64,000 nt of DNA from Blasia pusilla (GCA_050084515.1 CM114271.1:44392001-44456000), one strand, 5' to 3'. Shown: positions 31,101 to 55,269, counted from the first letter of the stretch. Notes: a model not told the origin generated them from the letters alone. A program made the numbers and translations.

Positions 31101-32280
31101 CAGTACATGGAGCCACGCTCGATGTTGTGGCTATCATCTCTTGGAGTACATGCAAAACATCCCAAGAAGTCCAAGGGTGTGTCTCTCGATCACCCCTAGT
31201 GTGTCGATCTCCTCGGGTCTCGCCCCCCAGCCACTGCCTCAACCGTCTCTATAGGCATGGGGCTCACCAACGCAACAACTATGATCTGTCACATCCTCAA
31301 ACTACGCTGCTCAACTACTCCTAACCTGAAAATCCATCTCAAGCAATTCAAGTCCATCGCCTAACCCAAGACATGATGTCATGATGCCTTCGATAGTGAT
31401 GGTACTGCCGTCACTCCTATGGGGAATCCCATCGCTCGCTCTCGCTCATTGACGTTGGGCTCCACCAACCTATGTACTTGGTCATCCTAAACCAAGCCAG
31501 GTCCGGCCTCCTTGAATGCATGGGAAGTGGGAAAACTCACCAATGTGGGAAAGGCAGCTCGTGGCATGCCAACTCTTCATAGCAGCAATCTTGCCTACCA
31601 AGGGTTCCTCTGACCCGTCACACTCTAGTGCAAATATCTCGCTCCATGCGGTCTCCACATGCTCAATGGCTAAGCGTCAAAGCTCCTCAGTCAAGCCCCA
31701 AAGCGGCACCTCTCCTCCACGAACTGATGCGGCTACAATGACACTCCTCTCCATAAAAATGTCAAGAACGGGAGTATCCTCTGCATGGACATGTTTCTCA
31801 ATCAAATCACTAGGCCAAGTGATGGCACTGCTAAATGCTGCTAAGGTCACCATCTCTCCAGGCCATCGCTCGATCACTGCACCTATCAATCGAATGGGTA
31901 ATGAGCTAAGGCGCCCATCACCTGACTGCCATCTTGGTATGTAGGACGCTGACTCCTTCCAGTAATCCAGGGAAAACCCCATTGGGTATAACACTGCTCC
32001 ACCAACCAAGACGTCGTAGGACTCTACATCAGTCACTATGCCCTTGGCTTACACCACGGACACCGCGTAGGATGTCCCGGGCGAATCCTCACCACGACCT
32101 CATGTCACGTCATATATTGTGTGGAACTCGCTCCACCCAAGGATGTATGTATTCAGAATGGACAACGCTCCACATCGGCTCTCGTCAAGCCCAATCCTCT
32201 GAATGACGCTTTCCCCAATATCAGGGGTTATGCTCCTAAATCCAACAAGACGCGCTGCGGACTAAAAGCTCTACCTCCGA
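28172..32280 (-). mobile_element. Copy X: truncated E1-family element (PR, RT, RNase H, IN) with the DNMT core deleted
   Basis: RT YIDD (ORF 30188-30409), RNase H LHTDWS (29645-29998), IN (28635-29027), PR region ~32000-32270. At ~31575 the sequence jumps from the equivalent of 52011 to 51270 of copy Y. Confidence 0.85.
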
Positions 32281-32808
32281 GACACCATGCATTTGGCAAC
32301 AAACTGCTGAACGTCAGTCTGCATGCCTGGCCACCAATACTGAATCTAGAGCAAGCTATACGTCTGCTTCACTCCAAAATGACCCAACTCCTGGTAGGCA
32401 TGACGCACCAAATGTGCTCTCTATGAAGGATGAGGCACTACACGCACACTACCGTCCTCCCACACTCGCAACACATGTGTGCCCTCCCACCGAAAGCGTC
32501 TAGCTCGCTGTAGGATCCCATCCTGCTCTCTAGCACCCATTGTGCTTGCAATGCTGCCAATATGTAGGTACTCCAAGACCATTCTATCATCTTAAATATC
32601 TCAGCCACTTGTCGTCTCCTCACCGACCTCTGGATCTAATGACTCTCCATCAGACCTCGCCATCGAAGTCTCAGCAATTTGGCTCTCCATAGCCAACAAG
32701 CCCAAATAGGCTGACACATGCCATCCTGGCAATGACTCCTCCTCATCACTCTCACCATGCCAATGAGCTCTAGTTGCATCTCGCTAACTTGGGCATGGGT
32801 TACGGCTC
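32281..32808 (-). mobile_element. Copy Y, 3' part (IN N-terminus), separated from its 5' part by insertion of E3
   Basis: Repeats the IN N-terminal sequence of 29060-29590. Ends gggttacggctc, which continues as (actc)aaacc at 50058. Confidence 0.8.
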
Positions 32809-34686
32809 TATCATGACCATACGGATTATGTCGTAGAGTATAGCGTGCTAGTAGAGGCCGTACCTTATGTAGGGTCGTAGTGTCTAGGTAGAAATGCGGT
32901 TTCATACATAGGGTTGGGGGTTACTCCGTTGAGGGTGACTTTTCCAATAGGGCCCGCTCTTAGGTTGGAGGATATAGTGTGGAGTGCACTCAAAGAACAG
33001 TAAGTTCTTTGAGTTGAGCATGTTGCGTTGGGAGTTAGCCTTGGTAGTGAGTAGAGCTCTTGGCTATGGTGGTTCCCGCAAGCTTTGACCTGGATTCTCC
33101 CATTGTGGAGTGGGTTTGGCTCGATTTTATGTGATTCTATATGTGTTTTATGAAAGTAGGTCTTTCACGGATTTCACTCAAAGAATTGGAGTAGATCCAT
33201 TGTAGCTTCGATCGTGGATCAGTACGATCTGGTTAGGGCTGGTTGTGTACTCAGCCGTGGATGTTTGTGGCTTGTGGCCTATGTTGGAGGTGGGAATCTG
33301 GTGCATGGTTGGTTGGGAAAGAAGCGCCTTGCTAAGAGCTTTCCAATGCGCTTTAGATTGCCGGATTTTGTGAAGGGAGTTGGAAGTTATCAAGGATTGA
33401 AGATTCTGGTTCGTGTTCGACGGTTTTCTGATGTGGAGAGCTTGGAGTGCGGAAGCTCTGTTGAAGTTCATCGAGATTGGGTGAGAGGTTCCTGTTGCTA
33501 CCTGTATAGTGATCTCATGTGAAGCTATCTGCTTGAGTGTGTGGAGCGTTGCGGATTTCTGTGTGCATGAATCTGGGCGGAAGCGCTGTCGGATTTGTGA
33601 TTCTTGAGGTGTATGGACAACAAGTTTGTCTGATTTTTAGCTCAGAGTACAGAGCTTGATTGTAGCTGATTTTTTGTGGAGAGATAACTATGGTGGCCAA
33701 TTGAATTCTAGTTGAAATAGATTAAATTTTGGTTGAGGATTTGTGGAGTAATTGCTGATCAAAATTTCATGGACTAGCTCAAGGTCTGGCTATGGTGGAT
33801 AGCAGATCGGAGGGGCCGGTTGGTTGGTGACTCGTCCATTTTTTGAGATGCCTATCCCATTGGGGGTGCCGTGGTTGGGCCTCTCTCCATAGCGAGGCAT
33901 GGCAAATAGGGAAATAGGGGCATTTCTCGAGCATTTCTCGGCGCTTCGAGGCTTCGAGGCAACTCGTGGTAGCTCGGGGTGAGTGGGCATGAGAGGCGGA
34001 GTAAGGAGTAAGGAGCAAGCTTGCTTGGGCGTGAGGAAATTTTTGCAAGATTTTTGAGTTGAGTGTTGCATAAATGGTCACCCATCTTTGGGCTATTCTG
34101 CCTGGAAGATGCTTAACTGCTAAGTTCTTAACTATGCTAGTGTACACACTGGTGTAGCTCATTTGGTGCTATTTGGAGATGTGTTAGGCGCTTTATGCAT
34201 CTCGGGTTTTTGGTTGATGGACCTCTAGCGCATATTACCGTGTGGCCTCTCCATGCAGGTGATATTTTCATGTGCTGCGAGTGCGACTAGCACGTCATCA
34301 ACCAGCGGCGGAGTAGCTATTGCGTTAGAATTGTGTGGTGGGTTTTGTGGATTCAGGGGGCGCCACATTTGGTGGATTGTGTTATCTTGATTTCCATTTG
34401 CGATTGGAGGGTTGTCGTTAGACTTCCTGTGTTTGGATCCCCTCCATCGTTGCTTCTTGCTTGCGCGCCCATTCTTAGGGTTGACGCTGATTTCCAGAGT
34501 AGTTTTACTCCTATGTGCTACCGGTAGTGAGGCTGGAGTGATGACCAGTAGATCATGGGAGGGTATTTTTGGTGATGACAGGTTAGGTTGCCCACATCCA
34601 TAGCTAGTAGAGCTAGAATAGTACAGTGACATCGACGTCACTTGGTTACTTAGTGGTGGTGATTTGGTGGTGGTGCGGCATCGGCG

Positions 34687-36357
34687 TTGGTCATCACGGA
34701 GCTGTCTGGTGGTCGGGTTGGGGACCGTGGTGCGGACAATGGTGGTTTTACACGGAGTGGATTGAGGTATCGGCTACCTTTTCCACTTCCGAAGGTTGAT
34801 GAGGACGAGGACGAGGGTGTTCCAAACACTGAGTCTTCTACGTTGTTATCGAGTGTTGCAGCTCCATTGATTTGGGACATGGACGGGATATATGAGGCCA
34901 TGAAGGGCCCACGAGGATACTCGGGTGCAGTGGGCACCATTGAGTTGGAGGACTTCATTCAGGAGTTTGATACATGGTGTGATATGCAAATGTTGCGGAA
35001 CGCCACGTTGTTTACACCCTTCTTGGCTTGGAAGGGGTTGTTTCAGCACTTGGAGGGACCACCCATGGACGATTACCATGAGTTTAGGAGGGACCATGTT
35101 GCTGAGATTGAGGCATGGAGACAATATTGGTCTCTAGGCTATGTGTCTATCACCCATGGTGGTATTGGTAGTAGTGCTCCTACTGTGCTAGCCAACCCGA
35201 CGTTGAGTGGTACGAGTACGAGTCGGAGTGGGGGTACCAGTGGAGGTACCCATGGAGGTACTAGTGGGGGTACTAGTGGAGGTACTAGTCCCCCACCATC
35301 GTTCAGCCCGGTTGCAGAGTTCTTCGAGAGGTTGAAGAAGAACTATCAGGGAGTGAAGATAGAGAAGTTGAGGAGTCTTCAAGAATTTGAGCGAAACACT
35401 GGTGATAGTCTTCGTGAGGCATACACTCGTATGCGACGCTTGATTTCACGTACCCAGGGTGTGACTGAGGCTCAAGCAGTCCTATTTTGGTATGGGATCT
35501 TGGACAGAGAATTACGCCGCATGGTACGTGATGCTACTCTTATGAGTGATGATTCATCCACATTGCGCCATGTGTTTGCTCTATCTGAGAAGATTGAGCT
35601 TAACATGGTCGAGGAGAGAGTGGTGACATCCGCATTCAATAGGGATACAACAACTACTTCTCGTGTTCAACAGTCCACCTCACAGTCTTGTAGTAATGGT
35701 GGTGGTGGTAGTAGTAGTGGGAGTCGTGGGGGGTACACACGACCTCTGTTAGGTCCTAGAGGGACACTTGCGCAGAGACCATTGCCTTCATTTGTTGCCC
35801 CGCAGCAAGGACAGTCATGTTGGACATGTGGAGGTGATCATGTCAGGAGGTTTTGTCCCCAAGAGGATGGGAGACAAACTTTGGAGGATAGACCTCAATC
35901 AGCCCCAACTCAGTGTGATTATTGTGGGAGACCAGGTCATCCTCGAGAGCGTTGCTTTGATCTTCATCCAAAGTTGAGATCAGACCGCGGTTGTGGTGGA
36001 GTAGCTCCAAGAGGCCGAGGTGGTAAAGGTGGTAGGGGTGGTAGAGGTGGACCAGTGGTTGGAGAGCCTACGGTGGCTACCCCTACCACTACGACAAAGT
36101 CAGCTATGGCTGCCATGATTGAGCAATTGGAGCAGAGGTTGGCTAATATGGCTGGTATCCAACATAGAGCAGGTTCAGGAGCAGGGGCTTCCACCTCTTA
36201 TAGAGGGGATGATCTCTCTTATATGGCAAGTGCAGCACAGGCTGAGGCATCATCTGCAGTAACGAGAGGAACCACTCGAGCGTCAGAGCCACATGGTGCT
36301 ACTGTGGAGTTGGACCAACAGAGGGGTAAAGTTGGGAGGCATGCTAGGCTCCCCTAG
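34687..36357 (+). CDS. gag: E3 Gag (open frame, 556 aa)
   Basis: Two zinc knuckles (CWTCGGDHVRRFC, CDYCGRPGHPRERC), an RGG tract and a GGTS repeat. Homologous to the E1/Y gag (GAVGTIEL.DFI.EF..WCD). True start codon uncertain. Confidence 0.8.
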   Translation: MVITELSGGRVGDRGADNGGFTRSGLRYRLPFPLPKVDEDEDEGVPNTESSTLLSSVAAPLIWDMDGIYEAMKGPRGYSGAVGTIELEDFIQEFDTWCDMQMLRNATLFTPFLAWKGLFQHLEGPPMDDYHEFRRDHVAEIEAWRQYWSLGYVSITHGGIGSSAPTVLANPTLSGTSTSRSGGTSGGTHGGTSGGTSGGTSPPPSFSPVAEFFERLKKNYQGVKIEKLRSLQEFERNTGDSLREAYTRMRRLISRTQGVTEAQAVLFWYGILDRELRRMVRDATLMSDDSSTLRHVFALSEKIELNMVEERVVTSAFNRDTTTTSRVQQSTSQSCSNGGGGSSSGSRGGYTRPLLGPRGTLAQRPLPSFVAPQQGQSCWTCGGDHVRRFCPQEDGRQTLEDRPQSAPTQCDYCGRPGHPRERCFDLHPKLRSDRGCGGVAPRGRGGKGGRGGRGGPVVGEPTVATPTTTTKSAMAAMIEQLEQRLANMAGIQHRAGSGAGASTSYRGDDLSYMASAAQAEASSAVTRGTTRASEPHGATVELDQQRGKVGRHARLP

Positions 36358-37576
36358 TCATTCTTGTTGTCTGAGGTGCTTAGGACTCCATCCATGGTCT
36401 ACGCAGCCTATTGAGCCTACAGTGGGGACTGAGGCATCTACATCGCGTGTAGTAGACATGGATGCAGCATCCAATGCAGCATCCAATGCAGTATTGTGGA
36501 TGGCAACTTCAGTGTTGGGATCCCCATTATTTTCAGCCACTAAGTTGATGGCCTTAGGAGTTGACTTAGCTCATATATTTCAGCTAGCAGCCACGTTGTG
36601 TGAACGTGGGAGTGTTACTACTACACGTGCTGTGGTGGATGAGGGTGTTGCGATGGAGCAACCCTCTATGTCAGGTGTAGCATTGAGTACCACTACTACT
36701 TGGCAGGCAGTAGCGGCAAAGATGGATGCATTACCAGCCCGGCCAGCCATTGATTGTGAGAGGCTTACACATGGTGTATGTATGTTGGACAACCGGAGTG
36801 GGATATTCTGATTGGTGAGTCATATAGGACAGGTGTATAGACCAGATAGAGTCTTGTTAGACTTTGGTGCCCCACCTTTGATGTTGGGAAAGGCGGCATG
36901 TATTGGTTTGGGTATTCGGAGGTTAGAGCTTGAGCCTTGCCCATTCCAGATTTAGACATCACTTGGAGGAGCCAATGATAGGTCTCATTTCATGACACGG
37001 GATAAGTTTTCTATACAGTTGAGATCAGATCATGCGACTGATAGCTCCAGGTTGGGAGTACCTGCAGTGGTCACATCAGCCGAGTCGTATGATGTACTAG
37101 TTGGAGGAGCAATATTATACCCGATGGGTTTTCATATGGACTACTGGACTGAGACAGTGTCTTATAGACCTGTTTGGCAGTCTGGGGATGGACGTATGAG
37201 CCAGGTTCTTGTGAGATTTTTTTATGGGGCTCGACTAGGAGGGTCTTCCCCAACGGTGTTAGCATCTGTGGCTGGTTTTTGTGCAGTAGTCACTTGGCCA
37301 GGAGACTTTTTGGAGGGTAACCTTTCTGCTATGGGTTCTTCTATGCATGAGGAGGTAGAGGAGGTCCCTAGTTTTGCAGCAGTGGTATCCTCATCATTGG
37401 ATGTGCCACTTTGGAGTTCAAGCGGTGCACTACGGCAGGAGGCTGATCGCCTAGTGTAGGAGGCTTGGTGTAAGGCTGTTATACCTCACGAGGAAGAGGA
37501 GGCTCCATGGCGGACTCCTACTTCTGGTCCAATTGGGTTATCCCTTTGGATACTACACCCATTGTATGGCAGTATC
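36358..37576 (+). pseudogene. E3 pol, 5' part: aspartic protease region
   Basis: RVLLDFGAPPLMLGKA at ~36850 (DSG in E1) and YDVLVGG; a few stops. Interrupted at 37577 by the chromovirus. Confidence 0.8.
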
Positions 37577-38606
37577 TGTCGTGCGCCTACTCTCCTTGAA
37601 CGTTTATCTTGTTTGTTGCGAAGCGTGCGTTCAGTAGGTCACGCTCTCAACGATGATTTGCATCCAAACACGCACTTTGGTTAGTCGGGTCTTGGATCAA
37701 TCAGCGGGATTACTTTCCGAGTTCTCGTCTCGGACTCTCATCAAGCTCAACGTTCCTAGTTTTACGGTTTCCAACACGGGCAAATCCCGAAAGACTTGGG
37801 ACAGACTTTCTGGTCGGTTTAGGAAATTGAAACGGCATTTCGCGCCTAGCGGTTCCAATCGTCCGATGGACATCCAATGAGTTCCTCACCAAGACTCGCA
37901 CGAAGTGAATCTCGGGTTGGAATCCAAGTGTGGCGTACAAAGTCCACTCCCTTGGATCAGGTTTGGGTTTTGAGTTCCAACGCCAAACTCCCGTTCCATC
38001 CCGTGCCTCTGAAACGCCGTTTGGCGCCCAAAGTGGGGATTCGTTTCCCGAGACATCTCGGAGAGAATCCTCCCTTACTAGTACTTCTGGGGATCTCCGG
38101 GGGCCCCCTACATTTAGGGAAAGACACCCGGGCCTCTCCAATTGGCCCTCAACCCGATTGCTCTTTCAATCGTTTTTGGCCAATATCTCAGCCTGTACTT
38201 ATGTGTTTGCTGAGATCTTTAGTGCGTCGGAAGCGTCTCAAGATCAGCTTTCCAACGCGCCCTTATTTGTCCCAAACGCATATCGGATCTCAACGTTATG
38301 GTCTTAAACACAGTCAGATTCTCCCAAACGCTAGTGGTGTTTCAAATTGGTTCTCACCTCTTTGGCAACCAACCTCCCAAGACTCAACTCATCTCAAGTC
38401 TTGGCTCGCGTTGGGTCTAGGTTTCCAAGTCGCGACCACTAAGGCATGAAACGCACAACTCTGTTCCGCATTTCGTCTCTTAGACTTTTCCAAGAGACTT
38501 TTCCAAACGCCTCTCCAAAGCGCAAACCTTGCAGCGTGAGTTCCTTTGAGTTCTGATGTTTCGCTTGGTGCCTATTTGGTGTTGTTTGGTTTAGAGGGTC
38601 GCGACA
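37577..38606 (-). repeat. 3' LTR of chromovirus
   Basis: TGTCGTGCGCC...GGTCGCGACA, direct repeat of 43939-44969. Confidence 0.97.
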
Positions 38607-38619
38607 CTCACCCCTCCTT
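38607..38619 (-). other. Polypurine tract of chromovirus
   Basis: Minus strand AAGGAGGGGTGAG abutting the 3' LTR. Confidence 0.85.
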
Positions 38620-39299
38620 AGAAGGTTGATGTCCTCATCAACGCAAACCTTATTAATGTTAAGTTCTGGGAAGCCGACCCCTTAACACTAAATCGCGTTC
38701 TGGTAGCTAACTCGCAATTCCTCTTTTGGCTTAAGTCTTAGGTTGTCTCTTGCAGCACTTAGACTTATTAGCTTATTTTTTTCGATTAGCCTAGACCAGT
38801 TTTGCACAACTAATCTAAACTATCAAACTAAGCTCACTAAGTCTGCAACCTAACACTTCACTCACTATTTGTAAACAACCGCCTATCTACCTAGCCAACT
38901 CGTACTACTTTTGGGTCACTTATATTCCACCTAGGCGTGCACTAAGTTCAGTCATGCAACATGAATGAGATCACCATAAACCCCAAGAAAGACTCATCTG
39001 CCCCGCCGACGTTAGGGCAAGCCCAAATGCTACTACTTCAACACTTGGTCATGATCTAGATACCTTATCTGAATACAAGCTCTCACCTCAAATACTCATT
39101 GTTTGGTCTCCTTGACTTACATCCTAAGCATATGAAGAACTACTCATTGCCTTGCACAAACCAAACTCAAAATTACAATACAAGCATCGAATCTCCAAAT
39201 CCATGTCTTCTTTATTGCAACAACTAAACATTTATAGTTACAACGGGTTATCGGCCCAAGCTTTCCGGTCACAAGTTATGTCCATTGCTTCACCATGTA

Positions 39300-42200
39300 C
39301 TAACGCATGTGCCTTTCTTTCATCCATCTGATGTCACGCAATGCTTCTTGCGCGTGTTCAAGATCCGCCTCCGCAATCCAAGTCGCCTCTTTCACATGGT
39401 AGCCTTTCCACTTGACCAAGTACTCGTACTTGGTGGCTCTACGTCTCGAACGCAGAATGGTCTCAACCTCAAACTCTGGTTCCTCATTTCTGATGACCGG
39501 TTGTGGTCTCAACATCCTCCTTCGCTCCGGACGCACATTGTCTTGAAGACACTTCTTCAATAATGACACATGGAAAGTCGGGTGAATCTTGAACTTGTTT
39601 GGCAGCTCCAATGTGTACACATCCTCAAACGGCTTTGCCTTGATCACATATGGTCCAGCATACTTGGCTAACAATTTCGCGAACAATTCCTTCGGAAGAG
39701 TGAGATTCTTTCCACTCAACCACACTTGTTCCCCAACTTGGAAACTCACTTGGCGCCGACTTTTGTTAGCATGCTTCACGTACCTTAGTTGAGCCTTGGC
39801 GAGACTTTTCCTCGCTCGCTCTTGTCGTTCTTGCATTTCCACTAACAAACATTCCGCCGTTGCTTGACGAGTGTGTGTCGATGTAGCGCCCTTCGAAAGA
39901 GCTAAGTCAAGAGGCCCTTCTGGTTCTCTTTGATACGCCAGAAGAAATAGAGATTCTCCGGTTGCATAATGCTTAGTCGAGTTGTAACAATACTCAGCCA
40001 TACTTAACCACTTGGCCCAATCTCTCTGGTCTGCACTCACGTAATTCCGTAAGTATTGGTTTACGACCGAGTTTACTTTTTCCGTTTGCCCATCCGTTTG
40101 AGGATGGAAGGCCGTACTAAAGTTGAGTTTGGTCCGGAACCTCATGAATAGATGTTTCCAAAAGGCACTGGTAAACTTCGGATCTCGATCGGACACAATG
40201 CTCCTAGGCAATCCGTGCGCTCGCCACCAACCATCCAAGTATAGTCGGGAAGTCGTGTAGGCCGTCGCAGACTCTCTTGTCGGCACAAACCTCCCCAACT
40301 TGCTAAACCGATCAACTATCACAAGTATAGCATTCTATCCCTTAGATTCCGGAAGACTCGTAATGAAATCCATGCTAATGCTTTGCAAGGGTCCCTCCGG
40401 GATTGGCAAAGGATGAAGTAAGCCTTGTTTCTTTGCATAAGAAACGCAGTTCGCCTGACAGGTCATGCATGTTTTCACATATTGAGCAACATCTTCCTTC
40501 ATGTTGGGCCAGAAGAACCTTTTGGTCAAAACAGCAAGAGTGGATTTCTCCCCTTTGTGTCCCGCCAAAAGTCCATCATGACATTCCACAAACACCTTGG
40601 TCCGTAGCTTGCCTTGGCCTACATAGATCCTGCTCTGCTTAAACCTTAGCAAGCCGTGTCTCAAACTCAGATTGGCCACCTTCTCGCCCCGCTCTAACTT
40701 CCCAAGGTACTCCCTCGCTTGCGCATCCTTCATGCATCCTTCACGAATCCTTCTTTCCAGGTCTGTTTCATTAGGGAACATTGCTCCCAACACATGTGTC
40801 GTCGATGGCATGTGCTCATCCCTGCGACTTAACGCATCTGGAATGACATTGTCTTTCCCCGGCTTGTGGATTAGCTCCACATTCATCAATGCCAAGGTAT
40901 CATGCCACCGAAGTTGCTTTGGCGTTACGCGATCCTCGGTCTCAAAATACTTGAGCGATATGTTATCGGTGAATACTTGAGTCCTGTGAAGTCCCAGATA
41001 GTGACGCCACTCCTCAAGCAGTGAACCACCGCAAACAACTCTTTCTCATGAGTAGGCCATCTCCTTTCAGTGTCGCTAAGCTTCTTGCTCTCGTATGCAC
41101 CAACATTCCCGCAATCGCGAAATCACTAGCATCTGTGTGCACTTCGAACGGTTGGTCAAACTCTGGCAATTTCACAACTGGCGCCTGCGAGAGGATCTCT
41201 TTGACTCGATTGAACGATTTATCCACTTCCTCGATCCATGTAGTATTGGCAAACTTTGCGGTCCAATCCGTGAGAGGTTTCACTATTCCCGAAAAGTTCT
41301 TCACGTATGTCCGGTAAAACTGGACTGCTCCGATGAACCTTCTCATCCCCTTCACCGTGGAAGGCGGTTCCAATTCGGCAATTGCGCTTACCTTCTCCAT
41401 GTCTCGACTCACTCCATCCGCACTAACCACATGCCCCAAGAACTTGATCTTCGTCAAACCGAACTCACTCTTATCCGCATTCGCATACAGCTTGCTCGCC
41501 CTAAGTTTCTCAAACACCGTCTTCAAATGTCGAGCGTGCTCCTCTAGTGTTTTCGAATATATGAGTATGTCATCTATATAGATGATCACAAACTCATCCG
41601 TGTCCTTATGAAAGATGGAGTTCATCAAAGTGCTAAACGTTGGAGGCGCATTACAAAGACCAAAAGGCATCACCACAAACTCAAACGAACCGTATCTCGT
41701 TCTACACGCAGTCTTCTCTACATCCGCTTTGGCAATCCGAATCTGCTAATATCCTGATTTCATGTCAATCCGGATGAAATACTTGGCACCCAAAAATCGA
41801 TCAAAGAGGTCATCCATCCTTGGTAGAGGATAGTTGATCCTTACCGTCACTTTATTCAGCGCTCGATAATCAACACAGAGTCTCAACTTCCCATCCTTCT
41901 TCTTTACAAAGAGGACGGGTGCCCCATAAGGTGACTTGCTTGTTCGGATGTAAACCCTCTCTAGGAGTTCACCCAAATATTTCTTCAACTCAGCAAGTTC
42001 CTCTTGATTCAACCTATATGATGCTTTTGAAGGTGGTTGAGATCCTAGTATCACCTCAATCTTATGATCAACCGCCCTATGTGGTGGCAACTCAGTCGGA
42101 AGCTCCTTAGTCAAAACATCTCCAAATTCTTTCACAACTCTTTTGAGTGTTTAAGGGATTCCCCTTGAAGCTGAGTTCTGATCTCTGCATCTCGCGCTTG

Positions 42201-43850
42201 CATCATCCTCTACTTGTCTCATCAAGCAAAGGAATCCTTCCTCTAACTCGGCCAAACTCGTCCTCGTGATGGCGTTCACCAACTCCGTCTCCCTAGGCAC
42301 CTCACGAACCAATATGACGTCCGTCCGTTTTCCGTTAACCAAGATGCTCAACCTCAAAGGTCTTCGCCTCAGTTCTACCTCATACGCATCCAAGAACGTG
42401 TTCCCCAAGACTCCGTCGATACCGTCCATGTCGCAAACTGTGAAATTCTCCTTCAACTCAAATACTCCGCATCTCACAACTAGCCCTAAAACCATATCTG
42501 AAGTTTGGTGGGACTTGCCTCCCGCGAATCCTACCCTAATGGGTTCATCCGTCTTGGTGGTTGGTAATCCCAACGTTGTCACAATTCTCGGACTCAAGAA
42601 TGAGTGCGAAGCACCTGTATCAACGAGCAACATCACATCGCGATTAGCGATCCTCGATCCTAGGTAAACCAAATTGGGCGTTCTCTTGGTGACTTGTAGA
42701 GATGTATCTAGATCTCCCTCCAATAAATGCTTAGCGGCAAATGCAATCATACTCGGTTTACTAACCTTGGGCCTAACACATTCCTTAGCCATATGTCCGG
42801 GTTTGCCACAGTTGTAGCAAATCACTTTGGCATTCGTTGACTTCGTAAACGGCGGCCCTTTTGGCTTTGCGTTGATTTCCACTCGTTTCGCTGCTGGGGC
42901 AAGAGACCCTACGTGGTCGCGCTCACCCCCATTCCAAAACCCTCTTGGATGTCCCTTTGTTTTTCAGAAACTTAGAAAAACTTTTTGGCTCAAAGGGTTT
43001 CGGGTGTTGGACTTCATCGTCCCCAATCCGCTCTGCTAGTCTCAAAAGATCCGCGCACGTCTCTGGGATGTGAGGCATACAAAAGAGGGCCTTTTTGGCA
43101 CTCGGTTTGAGTCCACTTAGGAAGATCACCTTTTTTGTATGTTCATCCGTGGAAAGTGCACTCATGAGTGCACTAAACTCTCGCACATAAGCGCCAAGGG
43201 ATCCACTCTGGCGCAACCTCACCACCTCCATGCCATCGCGATAGTCCTGATATTCCGGAGTGAATCGGTTCCCAATCAACTCCTTGAAATCTTCCCAACT
43301 CAATGTTTTCCCACGACCTAGATGTTCTTTACGGTGAGCCGTCCACCAATGGAGAGCGTGATCCTTGAAACGTGACGCTCTGATCACTTTGTCTTGTTAA
43401 ATGCTCCGCTTTTGCGCTTCGAAATAAAGTTCACTTTCCGAGAACGCCCCATTCTTGTGAATGGCATAGGCAAATTAGTCTTACAAAGCTTCTTGCCGGA
43501 ACTAGAGGCTCCATTTGACTTGAATTCTCATATCACCTTGCTCTGTTCGGCCATCTGGTCCGCCATCACCTTCATCAATCCCATCATTTGGATATAAAAG
43601 GCCGGATCGTTTAAGTTTGGACCCAAAGGTCCCGCGGAAAGATTTTCGGTTGGAACATCCTCATGTCTGGGACTCGGCACTTTGGGCGTCGCAAATTCCA
43701 CCTCTGGCTCTCGGTCCGTCATTGATTCGTCCCTCGACTTTTTTGCTTTGACTCGCGATTTCCTCGGTTCTTCGCCTTTGGTCGCCATTTGCGAGTCTTC
43801 GCTTTCTCAGATCTCCTCCTCGCCTCTTGCGTTCCTCCTCGGCATCGTGG
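39300..43850 (-). pseudogene. Chromovirus gag-pol (Gag, CCHC, PR, RT, RNase H, IN, chromodomain) with a few stops/frameshifts
   Basis: CYNCGKPGHMAKEC; LLVDTGASHSF; YIDDILIYS; VHTDASDFAI; HDGLLAGH..CMTCQ; IVSDRDPKFTS; GPY; chromodomain EFEVETILRSR...YEYLVKWKGY..EATW. Confidence 0.93.
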
Positions 43851-43924
43851 TCTTCCGGCTACCTTGAGTTCTCCCCAAACGTCCAGATCTTCAACGACCC
43901 CAAGTTCATGCTCAACAAGGATAA

Positions 43925-43936
43925 GCTCTGATACCA
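43925..43936 (-). other. Primer-binding site complementary to initiator tRNA-Met
   Basis: Minus strand TGGTATCAGAGC, 2 nt inside the 5' LTR. Confidence 0.95.
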
Positions 43937-43938
43937 CG

Positions 43939-44969
43939 TGTCGTACGCCTACTCTCCTTGAACGTTTACCTTGTTTGTTGCGGAAGCGTGCGTTTAGTAG
44001 GTCACACTCTCAACGATGATTTGCATCCAAACACGCACTTCGGTTAGTCGGGTCTTGGATCAATCAGCGGGATTACTTTCCGAGTTCTCGTCTCGGACTC
44101 TCATCAAGCTCAACGTTCCTAGTTTTGCGGTTTCCAACACGGGCAAATCCCGAAAGACTTGGGACAGACTTTCTGGTCGGTTTAGGAAATTGAAACGGCA
44201 TTTCGCGCCTAGCGGTTCCAATCGTCCGATGGACATCCAATGAGTTCCTCACCAAGACTCGCACGAAGTGAATCTCGGGTTGGAATCCAAGTGTGGCGTA
44301 CAAAGTCCACTCCCTTGGATCAGGTTTGGGTTTTGAGTTCCAACGCCAAACTCCCGTTCCATCCCGTGCCTCTGAAACGCCGTTTGGCGCCCAAAGTGGG
44401 GATTCGTTTCCCGAGACATCTCGGAGAGAATCCTCCCTTACTAGTACTTCTGGGGATCTCCGGGGGCCCCCTACATTTAGGGAAAGACACCCGGGCCTCT
44501 CCAATTGGCCCTCAACCCGATTGCTCTTTCAATAGTTTTTGGCCAATATCTCAGCCTGTACTTATGTGTTTGCTGAGATCTTTAGTGCGTCGGAAGCGTC
44601 TCAAGATCAGCTTTCCAACGCGCCCTTATTTGTCCCAAACGCATATCGGATCTCAACGTTATGGTCTTAAACACAGTCAGATTCTCCCAAACGCTAGTGG
44701 TGTTTCAAATTGGTTCTCACCTCTTTGGCAACCAACCTCCCAAGACTCAACTCATCTCAAGTCTTGGCTCGCGTTGGGTCTAGGTTTCCAAGTCGCGACC
44801 ACTAAGGCATGAAACGCACAACTCTGTTCCGCATTTCGTCTCTTAGACTTTTCCAAGAGACTTTTCCAAACGCCTCTCCAAAGCGCAAACCTTGCAGCGT
44901 GAGTTCCTTTGAGTTCTGATGTTTCGCTTGGCGCCTATTTGGTGTTGTTTGGTTATGAGGGTCGCGACA
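43939..44969 (-). repeat. 5' LTR of chromovirus
   Basis: TGTCGTACGCC...GGTCGCGACA. Confidence 0.97.
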
Positions 44970-44979
44970 CTATCCGCTG

Positions 44980-45930
44980 GAGGGTATTTGTGTATTAGAT
45001 CTCTTTGGTGGGATAAGCTATGGTTTGGCTGCAGTGTTGTAGGACGGTACTCCTGTGCGGAGATACGTGTATGTGGAGCAAGATGAGACGGCCTAGAGAG
45101 TCTCATCCAGACATATTGGTCAGTTGATGCGGAGATATCCTGAGTTGTTGCCACTATCAGCTTTTCGTGGGTACCGACGTGCTTAGCCGTCACACATTGC
45201 ATTGTTGGGGGCGTAGGACCTTGAGAGGATTGGTTGTGTGGATTTGGTGATTGCTGGATGGCCATGTCAGGGTCATACACATGCTGGTCGTGATGAGGGA
45301 TGACACGACCCTAGGTCTCGATGGTTTTGGGAGATGTTACGGGTGTTATGACATCTTCAGGTTCATTAGGCACGTGCTCCACCTTACATTCTGGAGAAGG
45401 TTCCATTCTTGGGTGACACTCGGACCCAGATGATGGCGAGTGTTCATGAGGTGCGGTCTTGGATTGGACCAACGATGTTGTTGGATGCAGCACGAGTTGG
45501 CTCGCGTGCACATCGTCCACACTTGTGGTGGAAAAACTTGTTGCCTAGGGAGGTTCTACGTTGAGCATATGATGCAATCCAGTGAGATCCTTGCCTTGCA
45601 GTGGATAGTATCTTGGATACTGGGCGACTTTCTTAGGTGGTGAGGGTTATTGATCGGTCACCCATGACAGTGGTGAACCGTGTGGGCCAGCCTAGGATGG
45701 CACTACCCACATTTTTGAGTTTTCCCTCGTCACATGCCTACAGGGAAGGTGGTCACGGGCTTGTATGGGATTCTCATGTGCGACTGTTGGTGGAGCCTAA
45801 CGCTGATGAGAGAGAGTGTGCTATGGGATTTGCTACTGGTGTGACAGCGGTTGCTTCCATTTCTGAGGCTTCACGACGTCATGTGTTACTTCAGGCCATG
45901 GACCTAAATTGTTTGACCTGGATTTTGAGT
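44980..45930 (+). pseudogene. E3 DNMT3-like C5-cytosine DNA methyltransferase domain (within pol)
   Basis: Motifs in canonical order: ICVLDLFGGISYGL (I), YVYVEQD (II), DLVIAGWPCQGH (IV, catalytic PC at 45262-45267), YILEKVP (VI; ENV in other copies), LDAARVGSRAHRPHLWWKNL (VIII), ERECAMGF...SRRHVLLQAMD (IX/X). Several in-frame stops. Confidence 0.88.
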
Positions 45931-46208
45931 CTTGGTATGGCCGAGCAGCGTCGACTTTGGACCATGTCTATGGATCTTCCACCCCTTGTGATGAGCTCGA
46001 TGGCTATTGGGACACTAGAGACATTGGCTGGGGGCAAGGAGAATAGTATTTTGCATCCTTAGAGTAAATGGGATGTAATGGCTGGGCATGTGGAGTTCGT
46101 TGCTCATGCTGATGGAGGAGTTATTTGCTCAAATGATGGTGTAGCTAAGGGTGTACCATCTTGTGAGGGGATTGCCTAGCAGCCAATGCGTCGTCCTCTC
46201 CCTCTAGT

Positions 46209-49200
46209 GTGCCAATGGAGGAGACTTGGGAGCCATTACTTGGGCCCAAGCTTACGGGAGGTGAGAAACGACGCTTGACACAGTTCCTACGTGCTTATAG
46301 GAGTTGTTTTGCCATTAGCATGAAGGAGTTGGGTGCTTGGGTTGGACCCGGTATACAGATTGATTTGGCTAGTGATATGCCAATCTTTCATCGTCCCTAC
46401 CGATATAGTGATATGGAGAGGGACCTGATTCAGAGTAGGACGTTGGACCTTTTAGAGGCTGGATTAGTGGAGTTGTCGCATGGAGAGTATGCGCCAACCA
46501 CTGTCATGCCTGCTAAAAAGGATGTGCATGGCAACTACATGGATAGGTGGATGTGTGGAGATTATTGTCCTATCAATCGGCAGACCAAGGCTGATAAGTA
46601 TGCCATGCCTACACCTGAGGAGATCTTTGATGTGGTGGGACAGGCAAAGATTTTCAGTAGTTTGGATCTTTGGGGAGGATACCATCAGTTGCCGATTCGA
46701 GAGAGTGACAAGGCCAAGACAACATTTTGGGGTGTCAACTCTCATGGCAAGTATTGTTTGTACCAGTGGAAATTCTTACCCTTTGGGTTGAAGAATGCAC
46801 CTGCCGAGTTTCAGAGAGTGATGGACAAGATCCTAGCAAGGTTGGATTTTGTTTGGTGTTACATTGATGATATCTTGGTGTTCAGTAACACGGTGGAGGA
46901 GCATCAGATAAATTTGCATATTGTGTTTGAGCGGTTGAAAGCTCATGGTCTACGTTTGCATCCAGGAAAGTGTAAGTTCTTCCATGAGGATGTTGAGTAC
47001 TTAGGTCATGTGATCTATCCAGGTGGTTTGGGAGTTCATCAAGCAAAGGTGGAGGCTATTGCACTTATTCCTCATCCGGTAGATGTGAGTAGAGTTCAAG
47101 CATTCATGGGATTGGCGAACTACTATCAGAGGTATGTGAAGAGATTTAGTGCTATGGCCAAGCCTTTGAACCAATTTCTGAAATCGGATGAGGAGTGGCA
47201 TTGGGGAGATGATCAAGAGAGAGCTTTTGTGGAGCTCAAGGCCCAGTTGGTGGCGGCGCCTATCTTGAGGAGACCTATTAGAGGGCGCCTATTTCAGTTA
47301 CACACTGATTGGAGTAGGTTGGGACTTGGAGCGGTGTTGACACAACATGATGATGAGCACATGGAGTTTGTGGTGGCCTATGCAAGTTGTTCGAATAATG
47401 CAACGGAGTCGCGCTATAGTTAATATGAGGGAGAGTGCTTGGCAGTAGTGTGGGCTGTGGCACACTTTAGGTGTTACTTGTTTGGCACACAGTTTACCCT
47501 TGTTACTAATCACCAGCCGCTCAAGTGGTTGATGGAGTGTGACAAGCTTACAGGGAAGCTTGCACGGTGGGCTCGTATCTTTCAGGAGTATGACTTCCAG
47601 GTGGTACATAGATCTGGAGTTGCAACCTTGATGCTGATGGGTTGAGTAGGAACCCATGTACTAGCCAAGAGGATACAACTGGGGCTAGATGGCATGGTGA
47701 GGTTGATGAGGAGATGGTGCCGGGTTGGCATGCATCTGCCTTTTTATGTTGGTTAGGGGTGGACTCTAGTATGGAGGACCACATGATATCTTACTCTAGT
47801 CAGACGGTAGATGGCGAGTCTTTAGATCCTAAGGTTGGAGATGGTGGTACGGATCAGCGTGATATTCATGATGATGCGTTGGTGTTGGAGTTCCTATTGA
47901 CCAGTAGGGTGCTAGACATAGTGAGTGCCAAGGAGCAAGACCGTGTTCTTCAACGTGCTAGGAGGTATCGATTGGAGGAAACACATATTCTTCTTGTGTG
48001 GGAGGATGGTAGAGTACGAGTGGTGCCGCATTTGGCTCAGAGAGAGCGCATTGTGCGACATGCTCATGAGGAGTTGGGACATTTTGGGGTAAAGCGTACG
48101 TATAGCTTACTCCTTGGCCAATATTGGTGGCGTGGCATGCATACTCAAGTGCAGCAGTTGGTATCACATTGTATGGTTTGTGACCGGGTGAGGGCATCAT
48201 TCAATGCACCTACACCACAGTTACACCCATTGCCTATTATGGGGTTGGGTTACCGTTGGAGTGTGGACTTTGCGGGACCGTTACCGTTGACTGTACGACA
48301 TTATCGATATGTGTCGGTGATAGTGGAGCACTTCTCCAAGTGGATTGAGTTGGTGGCATACCTAACAAGGCAAGTGAGGGAACCGCGTATGCGTTTCTTG
48401 ATAGAGTGCTTAGTCATTTTGGTGCACCAGCTGAGGTGTTGACCGACCAGGGTATAGAGTTTCAGGGTGAGTTTCAGGTCTTATGTGACAAGGTGTTGAT
48501 TGATCATCAGACCACGTATCGAGATCATGAAGAAGCGGATGGTTTGGCTGAGCGTGTGGTTCAGACGGTGAAGAGGGCATTGCGCAAGTATGGCCTACAA
48601 AAGGGGCATCTTGGAGACTGGGATATTCAGTTGCCATGGTTAGCCATGGGGTTTAGGTTTAGTCGCCAAGCATCCTTGGCTTCCTTCTCACCTTATTTTC
48701 TGTTATACGGCCGAGATCTAGACTTGCCAGCAACAATTCGTCGGGAGTCTAGTGAGGTGGTGAACCTTGATGACCCAGAGATGTGGATGAGAGTGTGTTC
48801 TCATTAGGCAGAGCTCTTTCGGAGAGTTATGCCAACAACCTTTGAGAATCTTGCCATTGCTCAACATAGGGATACGTTGCGGTATGCAACCATTCGGGAT
48901 GGAGGTTATTGGCCATCGATTTGTAGGTTCCATATGGGGGACTATGTCTATTTGCAGCAGATTGCACCGACAACGTTGGATGTGACGGCAGGCCGCACTA
49001 TTTTACGAGTGCGCAAAGTGTTAGCTTATGGAGTTCTTGTGTTGGAGGGTTGTGATGGCGTTGTTTGGAAGGACCATGTGCGTAATTGTGCCCCATGCCA
49101 TCTTCCAAATGTGGATGGTACTATTGATCCAAGCTTAGCCATGATACGTGCTAGCTTGAGGTGTATGTTGTGTGGGTCTGCTGGTAACGCAGCTCGTATG

Positions 49201-49302
49201 TTGGTGTGTGATCGGTGTTCTAGGGGTTGGCACATGATGTGCTTGACTCCATGTATGGATGTTGTTCCTACTGGAAGGTGGATTTGTTCTCGATGTACTT
49301 AG
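46209..49302 (+). pseudogene. E3 pol, 3' part: RT - RNase H - DDE integrase - PHD finger
   Basis: LPFGLKNAP, YIDDIL, LHTDWS; HAHEELGH..CMVC zinc finger, WSVDFAGP, LTDQG, DGLAERVVQTVK; terminal C4HC3 CMLC...LVCDRCSRGWHMMCL...WICSRC at ~49162-49296. Confidence 0.92.
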
Positions 49303-50057
49303 GAGGGATAGATGACTTGATCTTTGCATGATATGGATTACAGATGTGCGAGTAACGATGGGGCAACCTAGCACCCGGCCTTCTGATTGGTGCACCCACG
49401 AAGGTGTATAGCATGTAGTAGATGTATATGGCTACTTGGGAGTTAGAGGGACCTAACCGCCAGTTAGAGGGGTGAGTTTTGGTACACTTGTGTTTGTGGA
49501 TGCTCTCGTCTATGTTATCTATGTATGTGATTAAGGTTTGTCAACAATGTATGTTGTACGACGATTTGGATTCGCACGACAGGTGTCATGACCATACGGA
49601 TTATGTCGTAGAGTATAGTCTGCTAGTAGAGGCCGTACCTTATGTAGGGACGTAGTGTCTAGGTAGAGATGCGGTTTCATACATAGGGTTGGGGGTTACT
49701 CCGTTGAGGGTGACTTTTCCAGTAGGGCCCGCTCTTAGGTTGGAGGATATAGTGTGGAGTGCACTCAAAGAACAGACAGTTCTTTGAGTTGAGCATGTTG
49801 CGTTGGGAGTTAGCCTTGGTAGTGAGTAGAGCTCTTGGCTATGGTGGTTCCCGCAAGCTTCGCCCTGGATTCTCCAATCGTGGAGTGGATTTGGCTCGAT
49901 TGTATGTGATTCTATATGTGTTTTATGACAGTAGGTCTTTCACGGATTTTAGTTGTGGTACACTTGTGTTTGTGGATGCTCTCGTCTGTGTTATGTATGT
50001 ATGTGAGTATGGTATGTCAGTGATGTATGTTGTATTATGATGTGGATTTGCACGACA

Positions 50058-53000
50058 ACTCAAACCAGCTGTATCCAGGTTGAGCGTCCCAGATCTATGC
50101 ACCACATGGAAGTTATAATTCTGCAACAAAAGAGCCCACCTTGCAAGCTTCCCCTCTAAGCTTGTCGGACTCCATCAACCACTTAAGTGGCTAATGATCA
50201 GTAATGACGATAAAGGGATTGTCGAATAGATAACATCTGAAATGTGCTACAGCCTACACTGCAGCCAAGCACTCACCCTCATTCGAGCTATACTTACCCT
50301 CATCGCATCAAAGATCTTCTCAGGGATGGGCATGGCATACCTATCGGACTTTGTCTCTTGATTGATAGGTTGGTAATCTCCACACATCCGTCTATCCGTC
50401 CAATTGCCATGCACATCCTTCTTGGCGGGCATGACAGTGGCAGTTGCATACTCTCCATGCGACATCTCTACTAGTCCTGCTCCAACCAAGTCCTGGCTCC
50501 TACTCTGAATCACAGCCCTCTCCATGTTTTGTACCTATAGGGTCTTCGAAAGATCGGTGTGTCACTCCACAACTCAATGGAGATCCTGGACCCTTCAGCG
50601 TACCCAAATCATGTATACTAAATGCAAAACAACTCCTATAACTCCTAAGGAATTGGTGTATCCGACGCCGCTCTACTCCTATCAACTTAAGGCCCATATC
50701 TGGCTCCCAAGTCTCCATCGTGACTACGATAGGACTCTCCGGTACGAATGTCGGTGGTTGTTATGGTGCAACCCCGTCTCAGAAAATAGAACTCTCATCT
50801 CCACGTGCAGTACCCGGAACCACGCTTGATGTTGTGGCTATCATCTCTTGGCATACATACAAAACATCCCAAGAAGTCCAAGGGTGTGTCTCTCGATCAC
50901 CCCTAGTGTGTTGATCTCCTTGGGTCTTGCCCCTAGCCACTGCCCCAACTGTCTCTGTAGGCATGGGGCTCACCAACGCAACAACTGTGATCTGTCACAT
51001 CCTCAAACGATGCTGCTCAGCTACTACTAAGCTGAAATCCATTTCAAGCAATTCAAGTCCATCGCCTAATCCAAGACATGACGTCATGATGCATTCAATA
51101 GTGACGATACTGTCGTCACTCCTGTGGGGAATCCCATCGCTCGCTCTCGCTCATCGGCGTTGGACTCCAACAACCTCTGTACTTGGTCATCCCAAACCAA
51201 GCCAGGTCCGCCCATAGGAAGCGGGAAAACTCACAAATGTGGGAAAGGCTGCTCATGGCATGCCAATCCTCTTGACCACAATCAATAGCGGTTGATCATT
51301 GTGCCTCACTGTCTATGATCGACGGCCCGGATCCAATGTAGAATCCACCAACAAATCGGAGGGATGCTCCACTCTCGCATAAGCCCTCCGCAACACCTCA
51401 TGTGGTACCAAGTTGGTCCATAAAAGACGCGGGCATTGTGCTCTAGAACCTACACTCGCCGCATCTAACAACATTGCCGTGCCGATCCATGCGCGCACTT
51501 GATGTGCACTCGTCACCATGCGGGACCTCGAATTGCCCAAAATTGGCACATTCTCCAAAATATATCCTGGACAATGAGGTTGATGCTCATGTAAATGTCG
51601 CAAGATCCGCATCATCTCCCAAAACAACCTCAACCGAGCGTCAGCTAACCCGCTACCTCGTCCAACACTCGATTAGCCCTGACACGTCCAACCAGCAATG
51701 ACAAAGTCTATGGTCCCTACCCGCTCCAAGTCATGCGCCCCCTACAATAAAATATCCCTTGGTAGTGAACTGTGGGAACCCTAAATGGCGGACGCTGACA
51801 ACAAGTTGGGAAAACGGAGGCGTATTAGCACCACATGGTGAAGTGAAGCGTGCCTCACAACATCATCAATCTCCACATACACATACTGCTGCACGCGCAC
51901 TCCAGCGTGCAAAAAAGCAGCTAACCTAGTGTTCATCCCTCCAAAGAGATCCAACACTCGAATTCCCTCCTTTGGGATGCACCACACAATCAGGGTGGTG
52001 TCCAAAGGGGTCATAGCAGCACTCTTGCCTACCAGGGGTTCCTCTGACCCGTCACACTCTAGTGCAAACGTCTCGCTCCACGCGGTCTACACATGCTCAA
52101 TGGCTAAGCGTCGAAGCTCCTCAGTCGAGCCCCAAAGCACTGCTCTCCTCCATAGACAAATGCGGCTACCATGACACTCCTCTTCATGGAAATGTCAAGA
52201 ACGGGAATATCCTCTGCATAGACATGTCCCTCAATCAAATCACTAGGCCAAGTGATGGCACTGCTAAATGCTGCTAAGGTCGCCATCTCTCCAGGCCGTC
52301 ACTCGATCACTGCACCTATCAATCGAATGGGTAATGAGCTAAGGCACCCATCACTTGACTGCCATCCTGGTCTGTAGGATGCTGACTCTTCCCAATAATC
52401 CAGGGAAAACCCCATTGGGTATAACACTGCTCCACCAACCAGACGTCGTAGGACTCTACATCAATCACTATCCCCTTGGCTTGTACCACGGACTCATTTG
52501 TAGGATGTCCCGGCGAATCCTCACCACGACCTCCTGTCACGTGATATATTGTGTGGAACTCGCTCCACCCAAGGATGTCTGTATCCGGAATGGACAATGC
52601 TCCACATCGGCTCTCGTCAAGCCCAATCCTCTGAATGACGCTTTCCCCAACATCACGAGTTGCGCTCTTGAATCCAATAAGACATGCTGCGAATTAAAAG
52701 CTCTACCTCTAGGATTCACCAACAGGAAGACCTCTCCCTGGTTATCAAGCGACACAACACCAGAAGCCATGGCACGCTCGATCGTGGATCTAGCGAGCAT
52801 CTCCGCCATCCTAGTAGCCGCAGCCTACCATAAATTTGAAGTGGACGGCCTGGGCATCCGCTCCAAGGGCAGATCCATCACCTCCTCTGCAATCACCTAT
52901 GAATGTGATGCAAGAACTCCAACTCCATGCTCATATAGTGTAGCGTCCAACCGAAAAACCTTGGCGGGCATACCTCCCAATGTCATAACATCGGAAGCAG

Positions 53001-55260: not shown

Positions 55261-55269
55261 TCCTCAATG

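Follow-up and report, generated by a model that had tools for sequence, protein, structure and literature searches.

A decayed Gypsy-DNMT3 retrotransposon with split direct repeats and a PHD-tipped integrase in Blasia pusilla

The closest described system to the element reported here is KnitGypsy-Dnmt3 of the charophyte Klebsormidium nitens, which carries a Dnmt3 domain in the Pol open reading frame (ORF) of a long terminal repeat (LTR) Gypsy element (de Mendoza et al., 2018; PMC5890265). In the passages of that paper covered here, the legend of Fig. 4c gives its repeats as "the same as that of a DIRS retrotransposon", combined with a Gypsy domain composition, and a DIRS element, SymbioDIRS-Dnmt3, also carries Dnmt3. 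A 2026 preprint speaks, in the part available, of 'streptophytes (Gypsy-DNMT3)' (10.64898/2026.05.21.726589), and excerpts of another study describe PHD fingers as a common accessory domain of Chlamydomonas transposons, REM1 and others (PMC8557442). Here we analyse 64,000 nucleotides (nt) of Blasia pusilla DNA (GCA_050084515.1 CM114271.1:44392001-44456000), hereafter the window, and within it an insertion, E2, at positions 32809-50057. We show that E2 belongs to the streptophyte Gypsy-DNMT3 type of retrotransposon, in which a DNA methyltransferase (DNMT) of the DNMT3 class lies inside Pol, and that it is a full-length but decayed copy. What is new relative to print is the membership of land plants, how abundant the type is in liverwort-like genomes and possibly the PHD finger; the anatomy of the ends is clarified. 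Taken as a whole, the explanation developed below (identity, end anatomy, a permuted-provirus mechanism and the accessory domains) seems to us probable.

An initial annotation of the window had regarded the combination of a DNMT3-like domain, a PHD-tipped DDE integrase and split direct repeats as unknown in land plants, and had held that an already described family of this kind would overturn its reading. KnitGypsy-Dnmt3 already has DIRS-type repeats, Gypsy domains and Dnmt3 in Pol, at least as far as the covered passages go, and its Fig. 4c legend is in substance such a description. The novelty seen in the combination is therefore not borne out: it is in print for a charophyte.

E2, its domains and its relatives

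E2 is a single insertion occupying exactly 32809-50057, as initially annotated: alignment to two sister copies closes the gap at 32808/50058, across which the older copy that E2 interrupts is continuous. It is flanked by a target duplication, GCTC on the left and ACTC on the right, in which three of four bases are identical. Because its termini are TG...CA inverted repeats and a 4-bp target duplication flanks them, E2 was inserted by a DDE integrase. It encodes, in order, gag, protease, a DNMT3-like methyltransferase, reverse transcriptase (RT), RNase H, a DDE integrase and a C-terminal PHD finger:

34663-36354, forward strand: gag-like ORF of 564 amino acids (aa), with two CCHC-type knuckles recognised by eye
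36407-37504, forward strand: protease-containing pol segment (tblastn match to residues 6-365 of the Marchantia protein P0003, 63% identity; 3 in-frame stops)
44990-45924, forward strand: DNMT3-like C5-methyltransferase domain (motifs I and IV, PCQ, readable; ENV changed to EKV; 10 in-frame stops between motifs I and X)
46167-47642, forward strand: reverse transcriptase and RNase H (Pfam, ORFs)
47612-48804, forward strand: integrase, H2C2 zinc domain and DDE core, in two frames (Pfam, tblastn)
48808-49299, forward strand: integrase C-terminal region with the terminal PHD finger at 49162-49296 (Pfam)

Pfam was run on single window ORFs, the E2 frame being interrupted by stop codons. Matches were obtained for RVT_1 (E = 2.1e-30), RT_RNaseH_2 (4.2e-17), Integrase_H2C2 (1.7e-16) and PHD (4.4e-09). 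The rve match stayed below its cut-off (E = 4.8e-05, 24 bits against 32.6) and passes in intact homologues. Nothing among the window's DNMT, protease and gag fragments rose above the Pfam cut-off, and the gag-like ORF had no Pfam match. For DNA_methylase (PF00145), the best fragment in the window lies at 51316-51672 on the reverse strand, in the interrupted copy (E = 0.0057, 16.6 bits against 22); the same family passes on intact homologues, including P0003. With P0003 as query, tblastn placed the methyltransferase of E2 at 44827-45924 (64% identity).

The initial annotation had read protease, methyltransferase, RT, RNase H, integrase and PHD finger as one pol frame. Their order holds; the continuous frame does not, being broken by stops, by frame changes (the pieces of RT, RNase H and integrase do not share a frame) and by a nested 7.4-kb chromovirus that splits pol and is absent from that annotation. 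With this insertion and 10 in-frame stops in the DNMT, the E2 copy is dead. Its order of protease, RT, RNase H and H2C2-plus-DDE integrase is that of Ty3/gypsy elements, as are the TG...CA termini and a 4-5 bp target-site duplication, whereas the two identical flanking LTRs of that group are absent and the ends read A...B-A-B. The chromodomain found at the integrase C-terminus of chromoviruses is also absent, and the PHD finger is there instead.

For the RT ORF, the best protein matches are liverwort ones, in Calypogeia fissa and Marchantia polymorpha (70-79% identity). Behind them come Klebsormidium, Closterium, Sphagnum and Haematococcus, together with numerous metagenome proteins in which PF00145, RVT_1, rve and PHD occur in combination. 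The DNMT stretch of P0003 as query returned 30 proteins, 20 of them Marchantia gene models, with Calypogeia and two Sphagnum species also represented. The closest named relatives of the family are land-plant proteins, from liverworts and moss. In a midpoint-rooted FastTree phylogeny of 115 RT rows, all hits of one search, a single split (support 99) unites 79 rows. These include every DNMT-flagged row, the window, Marchantia, Calypogeia, Klebsormidium, Closterium and Haematococcus, and all PHD-flagged rows except P0090, which falls outside. All four chromodomain rows in the tree lie outside this clade (five proteins were flagged; P0103 was dropped from the tree), and the nearest non-family RT matches, in this tree without curated Ty3/gypsy references, are chromodomain-bearing gypsy proteins. 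Two Klebsormidium proteins, both without a DNMT part, lie inside the clade, and the family may share descent with the Klebsormidium elements. The proposal of a distinct gypsy-like lineage, with a DNMT3-like domain, a PHD-tipped DDE integrase and split direct repeats, is borne out.

Our literature searches returned no paper on these elements in liverworts or mosses, and a search on six Marchantia gene ids returned none naming them. Among the matches to a search for split direct repeats on Gypsy elements, judged from the list of matches and from excerpts of two of the papers, none reported such repeats. The words 'PHD', 'Marchantia' and 'circular' have no occurrence in the main text of PMC5890265.

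Split direct repeats and how they may arise

Instead of two LTRs, E2 has the ends A...B-A-B that were initially annotated, confirmed here by repeat alignments. Numbering the copies from the left, A1 (32811-33174) and A2 (49586-49949) are 96% alike over 364 bp, and B1 (49475-49581) and B2 (49951-50057) are 87% alike over 107 bp. The same layout occurs in E1, an older copy in the window. From left to right, the ends comprise:

32805-32808: left target-site duplication GCTC (a tetranucleotide position present only once in sister copies)
32809-33174, forward strand: repeat A1, which starts TA (TG in A2), then TCATGACC
32973-32977, forward strand: TATA-like box in A1 (sequence reading)
33004-33014, forward strand: predicted RNA 5' end and self-primer GTTCTTTGAGT in A1 (complementarity to the primer site)
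33175-33186, forward strand: putative primer-binding site directly after A1, ACTCAAAGAA, complementary to 33005-33014
49466-49472, forward strand: polypurine tract AGAGGGG, 2 nt before B1
49473-49581, forward strand: repeat B1, ending ...GCACGACA
49582-49583, forward strand: 2-nt spacer GG of the CA-NN-TG palindromic junction
49584-49949, forward strand: repeat A2, beginning TGTCATGACC
49950-50057, forward strand: repeat B2, abutting the last base of A2 and ending CA at the insertion boundary
50058-50061: right target-site duplication ACTC (sister-copy alignment, duplication test)

B1 and B2 differ at 14 of 107 positions and A1 and A2 at 14 of 364, with CpGs kept in B1 and lost in B2. In run X1, the window compared with other copies of the family gave 70 A>G and 54 T>C differences against 44 G>A and 28 C>T, the window being richer in A/T. 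Both the CpG loss in B2 and this excess fit decay by cytosine deamination.

We fetched 80 metagenome loci with a polyprotein profile, of which 43 were matched by A or B probes. In 20 loci pol is followed by B-A-B, and 10 of these also have A1 upstream; two locus pairs look like duplicates, leaving 18 and 9 distinct loci, respectively. No locus matched by the probes has A-B-A upstream of pol. Another 13 loci have pol, a single B and then unrelated DNA (L002, L009, L075, L010, L016/L019, L023, L030, L045, L046, L052, L056 and L079). Three of them have a single upstream A and so read A-internal-B, with duplications TACA/TACA (L002), TTTT/TTTT (L009) and AGAT/AGAC (L075). We also aligned four runs of contigs to the window. 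Copies of the family are very numerous in the DNA runs that match the window (112,914 contigs placed in one run); other genomic copies in these contigs show A followed by CACTCAAAGAAC at the primer site (loose end at 49949) and B-NN-A joints with other spacers, and no joint form appeared beyond those already present in the metagenome loci.

Several regularities recur across these copies. A run of G ends exactly at the start of B1 in 15 of 17 loci; of 12 additional loci, 11 show it too. B2 starts at the same nucleotide, immediately behind the final base of A2; in A1, this base precedes the conserved primer-site motif. A starts with TGTCATG and B ends with CACGACA, which form inverted repeats, and at the B1/A2 junction, CA-NN-TG, each of the 15 aligned loci has a gapless spacer of exactly 2 nt, as do E2 (GG) and E1 (GT). 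Target duplications with at least three of four bases identical flank 10 of 13 elements, five of them perfectly, compared with 37 of 520 in a shifted control. Of 15 aligned loci, 14 carry a TATAAAA box (the remaining one has TATGAAA), which stands about 31 nt before the stretch that pairs with the primer site; in the E2 subfamily, the box upstream of that stretch is TATAAAG or TATAG.

The complement of the primer site within A is 13 nt long in L012, 11 nt in L014 and L029, and 10 nt in L039 and E2, where it was reached by 2 of 500 shuffles. Six of 14 loci have an exact complement, 9-13 nt long, that no more than 6 of 500 shuffles attained. The pairing differs between subfamilies yet is kept in both (TCTAGAAAAACTA/TAGTTTTTCTAGA versus ACTCAAAGAAC/GTTCTTTGAGT), and L017 compared with E2 shows two compensatory changes in it.

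Two registers can be read from these ends, and they differ by the length of B. The polypurine tract, the position of the joint and the primer site imply that standard reverse transcription defines the repeat unit as B·A. The TG/CA inverted ends and the target duplications imply that integrase joins the start of A and the end of B to the target. Such an end structure needs an extra step beyond the textbook LTR cycle, which upholds the initial suggestion of a non-standard replication route.

On the route that we propose, the RNA would start inside A1, end inside A2 and prime itself in the manner of Tf1. Tf1 is a self-priming element with this primer layout. REXdb includes self-priming gypsy clades without tRNA primer sites. 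Reverse transcription would yield an ordinary linear complementary DNA (cDNA) with the LTR B·A (U3-R-U5), whose U3 would begin at the polypurine tract and take in B together with the first half of A, with R-U5 continuing to the primer site. The ends recognised by integrase would lie inside U3, not at the tips of the LTR. The A2|B2 joint places the U5 end next to the U3 start, that is, the base before the primer site beside the base after the polypurine tract, and a form joined in this way might be a two-LTR circle, or might arise by template switching or by the joining of ends. It would be opened at the palindrome of one LTR by nicks 3' of each CA; being 2 nt apart, these would leave 2-nt 5' overhangs, in their geometry processed-type retroviral ends. 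Integration would then give A-internal-B·A-B: the provirus would be circularly permuted, and one LTR would be divided between its two ends. This is the 'split LTR' reasoning of PAT and Ngaro elements, applied here to a DDE integrase with target duplications. That the provirus is a circular permutation of its own cDNA, with integrase cutting at CA-NN-TG inside U3 and the A2|B2 joint new in each insertion, is a proposal that we advance tentatively and place slightly short of an even chance.

Differences between copies bear on the last of these points. The A2|B2 joint differs in length in 8 of 15 loci and B1-NN-A2 never does; in a tree of the inherited flank, three joints of '-2' fall in three clades, each beside a sister with '0'. 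In L029, the end of B (about 9320-9340) has two copies of the motif CGTCAC(G/A)ACA, 15 nt apart. The terminal B2 stops at the inner CA motif and is followed by a perfect ACCT duplication, and B1 is full length, which suggests that the right end is set by the position of the integrase cut. Both the variable joint and the B2 end of L029 fit a joint made anew at each insertion.

Two simpler candidates were rejected along the way. A two-LTR circle opened at either palindrome is not sufficient, the second expected permutation being absent. Nor does the 2-nt spacer appear to be remade each cycle: C-to-T and G-to-A transitions at a CAGCTG (CHG) site connect the spacers GC, AC, GT and AT, and ordinary decay at that site explains the differences between sister loci.

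The leading alternative to a permuted provirus is that the order A1...B1-A2-B2 is itself inherited through RNA, with a transcript from inside A1 to inside B2, tips restored from B1-A2 and insertion by the DDE integrase. This is the model of PAT and Ngaro tyrosine-recombinase elements. It explains directly why one permutation is seen (20 pol-B-A-B loci and none with A-B-A upstream of pol), and the layout equals the DIRS-type split direct repeats described in the covered part of PMC8969392. It sits poorly with a polypurine tract that abuts B1 and a primer site that abuts A1, because at those positions standard priming already sets B·A as the LTR and would leave the B2 tail of the RNA uncopyable. 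It also meets an A2|B2 joint that varies in length between sister copies while the inherited B1-NN-A2 stays constant. We judge this inherited order unlikely.

Replication in the DIRS or Ngaro manner, through circular cDNA and a recombinase with the integrase vestigial, draws its appeal from the split direct repeats, which E2 shares and which are otherwise a hallmark of tyrosine-recombinase retrotransposons in the covered text of PMC8969392. It is largely refuted, and we give it very little probability. No tyrosine-recombinase Pfam family matched any ORF searched, and the 1.5-kb leader of E2 has no ORF longer than 78 aa. The termini are TG...CA, H2C2 and rve are conserved in intact homologues, and 4-bp duplications flank 10 of 13 elements, while DIRS elements lack them according to the same text. 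An ordinary LTR element with LTR = A·B and the B part of its 5' LTR deleted, for which A2-B2 together spanning TG to CA like a normal LTR could be cited, is the least credible reading and is refuted by recurrence of the layout, since the same loss would be needed in E1, E2 and 10 metagenome loci, quite apart from the conserved primer-site motif immediately after A1 and a polypurine tract that precedes B1, not A2.

The methyltransferase and the PHD finger

Among solved methyltransferases, the DNMT stretch of P0003 best matches DNMT3A, DNMT3B and DNMT3C (E = 3e-08 for DNMT3A, up to 7.5e-05), and non-DNMT3 enzymes match far worse (HaeIII 0.0024, DRM2 0.13, DNMT2 0.25). Its motifs follow the order I, IV, VI, VIII, X, that of an unpermuted Dnmt3-type domain, here inside Pol. 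We compared 40 homologues, 27-100% identical and spanning the domain. The motif IV cysteine is present in 36 and the remaining four have gaps there; the glutamate of ENV is present in all 40 and its asparagine in 39; and the motif VIII arginines are kept in 37 and 39. Catalytic residues kept across these homologues argue for a working enzyme in live copies, one that probably methylates the new cDNA or the provirus.

The best PDB matches of the PHD finger are KMT2C (E = 1e-15), DPF2 (5e-15), CHD4 (1e-13) and ATXR5 (1.4e-12), followed by KDM5B (6e-11), PHF21A (7e-10) and AIRE (4e-07); DPF3 is likewise among the proteins whose fingers it most resembles. The class of AIRE, BHC80, CHD4 and DPF presumably reads mostly the unmodified H3 tail (H3K4me0); the assignment here is one of sequence likeness. 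Occupying the position that the chromodomain has in chromoviruses, the finger probably anchors the integrase to histone H3 tails in a particular state. The initial annotation had the lineage reading chromatin through its PHD finger and writing methylation through its DNMT; both are putative functions.

Two metagenome relatives, P0060 and P0063, have the order RT, RNase H, DNMT, integrase, PHD and an extra 350-residue C-terminal region with an SPPF/APPL-type motif. This region looks like a second methyltransferase, of N6/N4 type; LTR elements with two methyltransferases are reported from other lineages in the covered part of the 2026 preprint (10.64898/2026.05.21.726589).

The DNMT and the PHD finger might instead be passengers that contribute nothing to transposition, such as neutrally decaying relics of one capture. 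That the DNMT precedes RT in some relatives and follows RNase H in others would suit passengers, as would the many predicted proteins of the clade without a Pfam DNMT call and the finding that the Klebsormidium domain produced no methylation in yeast, a result that its authors call inconclusive (PMC5890265). Neutral decay is hard to square with catalytic residues kept in 36-40 of 40 homologues down to 27% identity. Moreover, 21 of the 40 carry no Pfam flag (P0103, absent from the tree, among them) and still align over the whole DNMT domain, and Ka/Ks is below 0.2 for the Klebsormidium copies in the passages covered of de Mendoza et al. (PMC5890265). We regard the passenger view as improbable.

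The yeast result counts against the explanation as a whole, and so do several other observations. Every copy in the window is dead and gives no information on current activity. The RT tree is a quick one, made from the hits of a single search without curated references or a non-gypsy outgroup. Exact matching leaves 8 of 14 loci with a weak primer-site complement or none, the stretch being decayed in many copies, and the match in L033 is not at the homologous position. In 3 of 13 elements the flanking bases do not qualify as a target duplication, and B1 and B2 of E2 are only 87% alike, compared with 96% for A1 and A2. Length differences at A2|B2 fall in an AT-rich run, where replication slippage is a possible source. 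The 13 pol-B loci may be direct A-internal-B insertions of singly cut cDNA, or B1xB2 deletions. Random opening of a circle predicts A-B·A-internal-B proviruses in equal number, and none was seen against 20 of the observed kind among the probe-matched loci. Finally, the RNA start site, the use of the primer and the joined intermediate are all inferred from sequence.

Neighbouring copies, significance and comparison with known systems

The family recurs within the window, as initially annotated, and self-comparison together with tblastn delimits the copies as follows, along with the nested chromovirus:

2323-11469 (end approximate), forward strand: E1, an older copy whose subfamily has diverged from that of E2 (65-70% identical in DNA; A...B-A-B ends; spacer GT; RT deleted)
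28257-32278, reverse strand: further partial copy, protease to integrase, abutting the interrupted copy (self-comparison and tblastn)
50058-55563, resuming at 32808-32284, reverse strand: older copy interrupted by E2, with the window's best-preserved DNMT fragments (self-comparison)
58377-58793, reverse strand: isolated protease-region fragment (tblastn match to residues 135-274 of P0003, 45% identity)
37577-44969, reverse strand: nested canonical chromovirus between protease and DNMT of E2 (target-site duplication GTATC/CTATC), outside the DNMT family

In the self-comparison, the first segment of the interrupted copy reads 55563-50059. E2 entered an older copy of its own family, and the chromovirus later entered E2. 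The LTRs of the chromovirus, about 1033 bp long, are 98.9% identical, which marks it as fairly young, and its Pfam domains are Retrotrans_gag, zf-CCHC, aspartyl protease, RVT_1, RNase H, Integrase_H2C2, rve, SH3_Tf2-1 and Chromo. It has the ends TGTCGTG...CGCGACA, similar to the termini of the split-repeat family, and an LTR-length piece at 11566-12568, next to the end of E1, is 73% alike to its LTR. At 32278-32284 the interrupted copy ends at the equivalent of E1 position 9469 and the next copy starts immediately at the equivalent of 6654, so that two members of the family either form a partial tandem here or were joined by recombination. Elsewhere in the window, an ORF at 13047-13769 on the reverse strand has a Helitron_like_N match just under the cut-off (E = 1.7e-06, 28.8 bits against 28.9), and 15584-16815 holds two to three tandem units of about 590-650 bp each, 79-86% alike.

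With E2 and its relatives, retrotransposons that carry a DNMT reach beyond one charophyte to land plants. Calypogeia and Sphagnum proteins, and about 20 gene models of Marchantia polymorpha, are fragments of this element, and some of the Marchantia fragments are named 'DNA (cytosine-5-)-methyltransferase' in UniRef, so counts of DNMT3-type genes in bryophytes may include transposon copies. Split direct repeats have so far been taken as the signature of tyrosine-recombinase elements without target duplications, and the end anatomy described here offers a concrete proposal for how a DDE integrase could make them. If the permuted provirus is correct, it would link the replication logic of LTR elements with that of split-repeat DIRS and Ngaro elements and provide a natural case of integration from a junction-bearing form of cDNA, in an element that would unite a histone reader with a DNA methyltransferase from chlorophytes to liverworts and mosses.

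With KnitGypsy-Dnmt3 the family shares the Dnmt3-type domain inside Pol, the Gypsy domains and the A-coding-B-A-B repeats, and Klebsormidium proteins fall in its RT clade. The two differ in host, a charophyte there and a land plant here, and in the PHD finger, which the main text on KnitGypsy-Dnmt3 does not mention; the polypurine tract, primer site, palindrome and target duplications are likewise not described in the passages of that paper covered here. PAT/Ngaro-type DIRS elements, including SymbioDIRS-Dnmt3, have the same A1-internal-B1-A2-B2 layout, made with a tyrosine recombinase and without target duplications, whereas the E2 family has a DDE integrase, TG...CA ends and 4-bp duplications. 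The Chlamydomonas PHD transposons resemble it in having a PHD finger as an accessory of green-lineage retroelements, while, compared by description and within the excerpts covered, neither a DNMT nor split repeats are reported for them (PMC8557442). Chromoviruses have the same order of protease, RT, RNase H and integrase and likewise place a chromatin-reader module at the integrase C-terminus, and in self-priming ones such as Tf1 the primer site pairs, as proposed here, with the 5' end of the RNA itself and not with a tRNA. They differ in that the E2 family has a PHD finger in place of the chromodomain, an additional DNMT and split repeats instead of two LTRs, and the chromodomain-bearing rows of the RT tree fall outside its clade.

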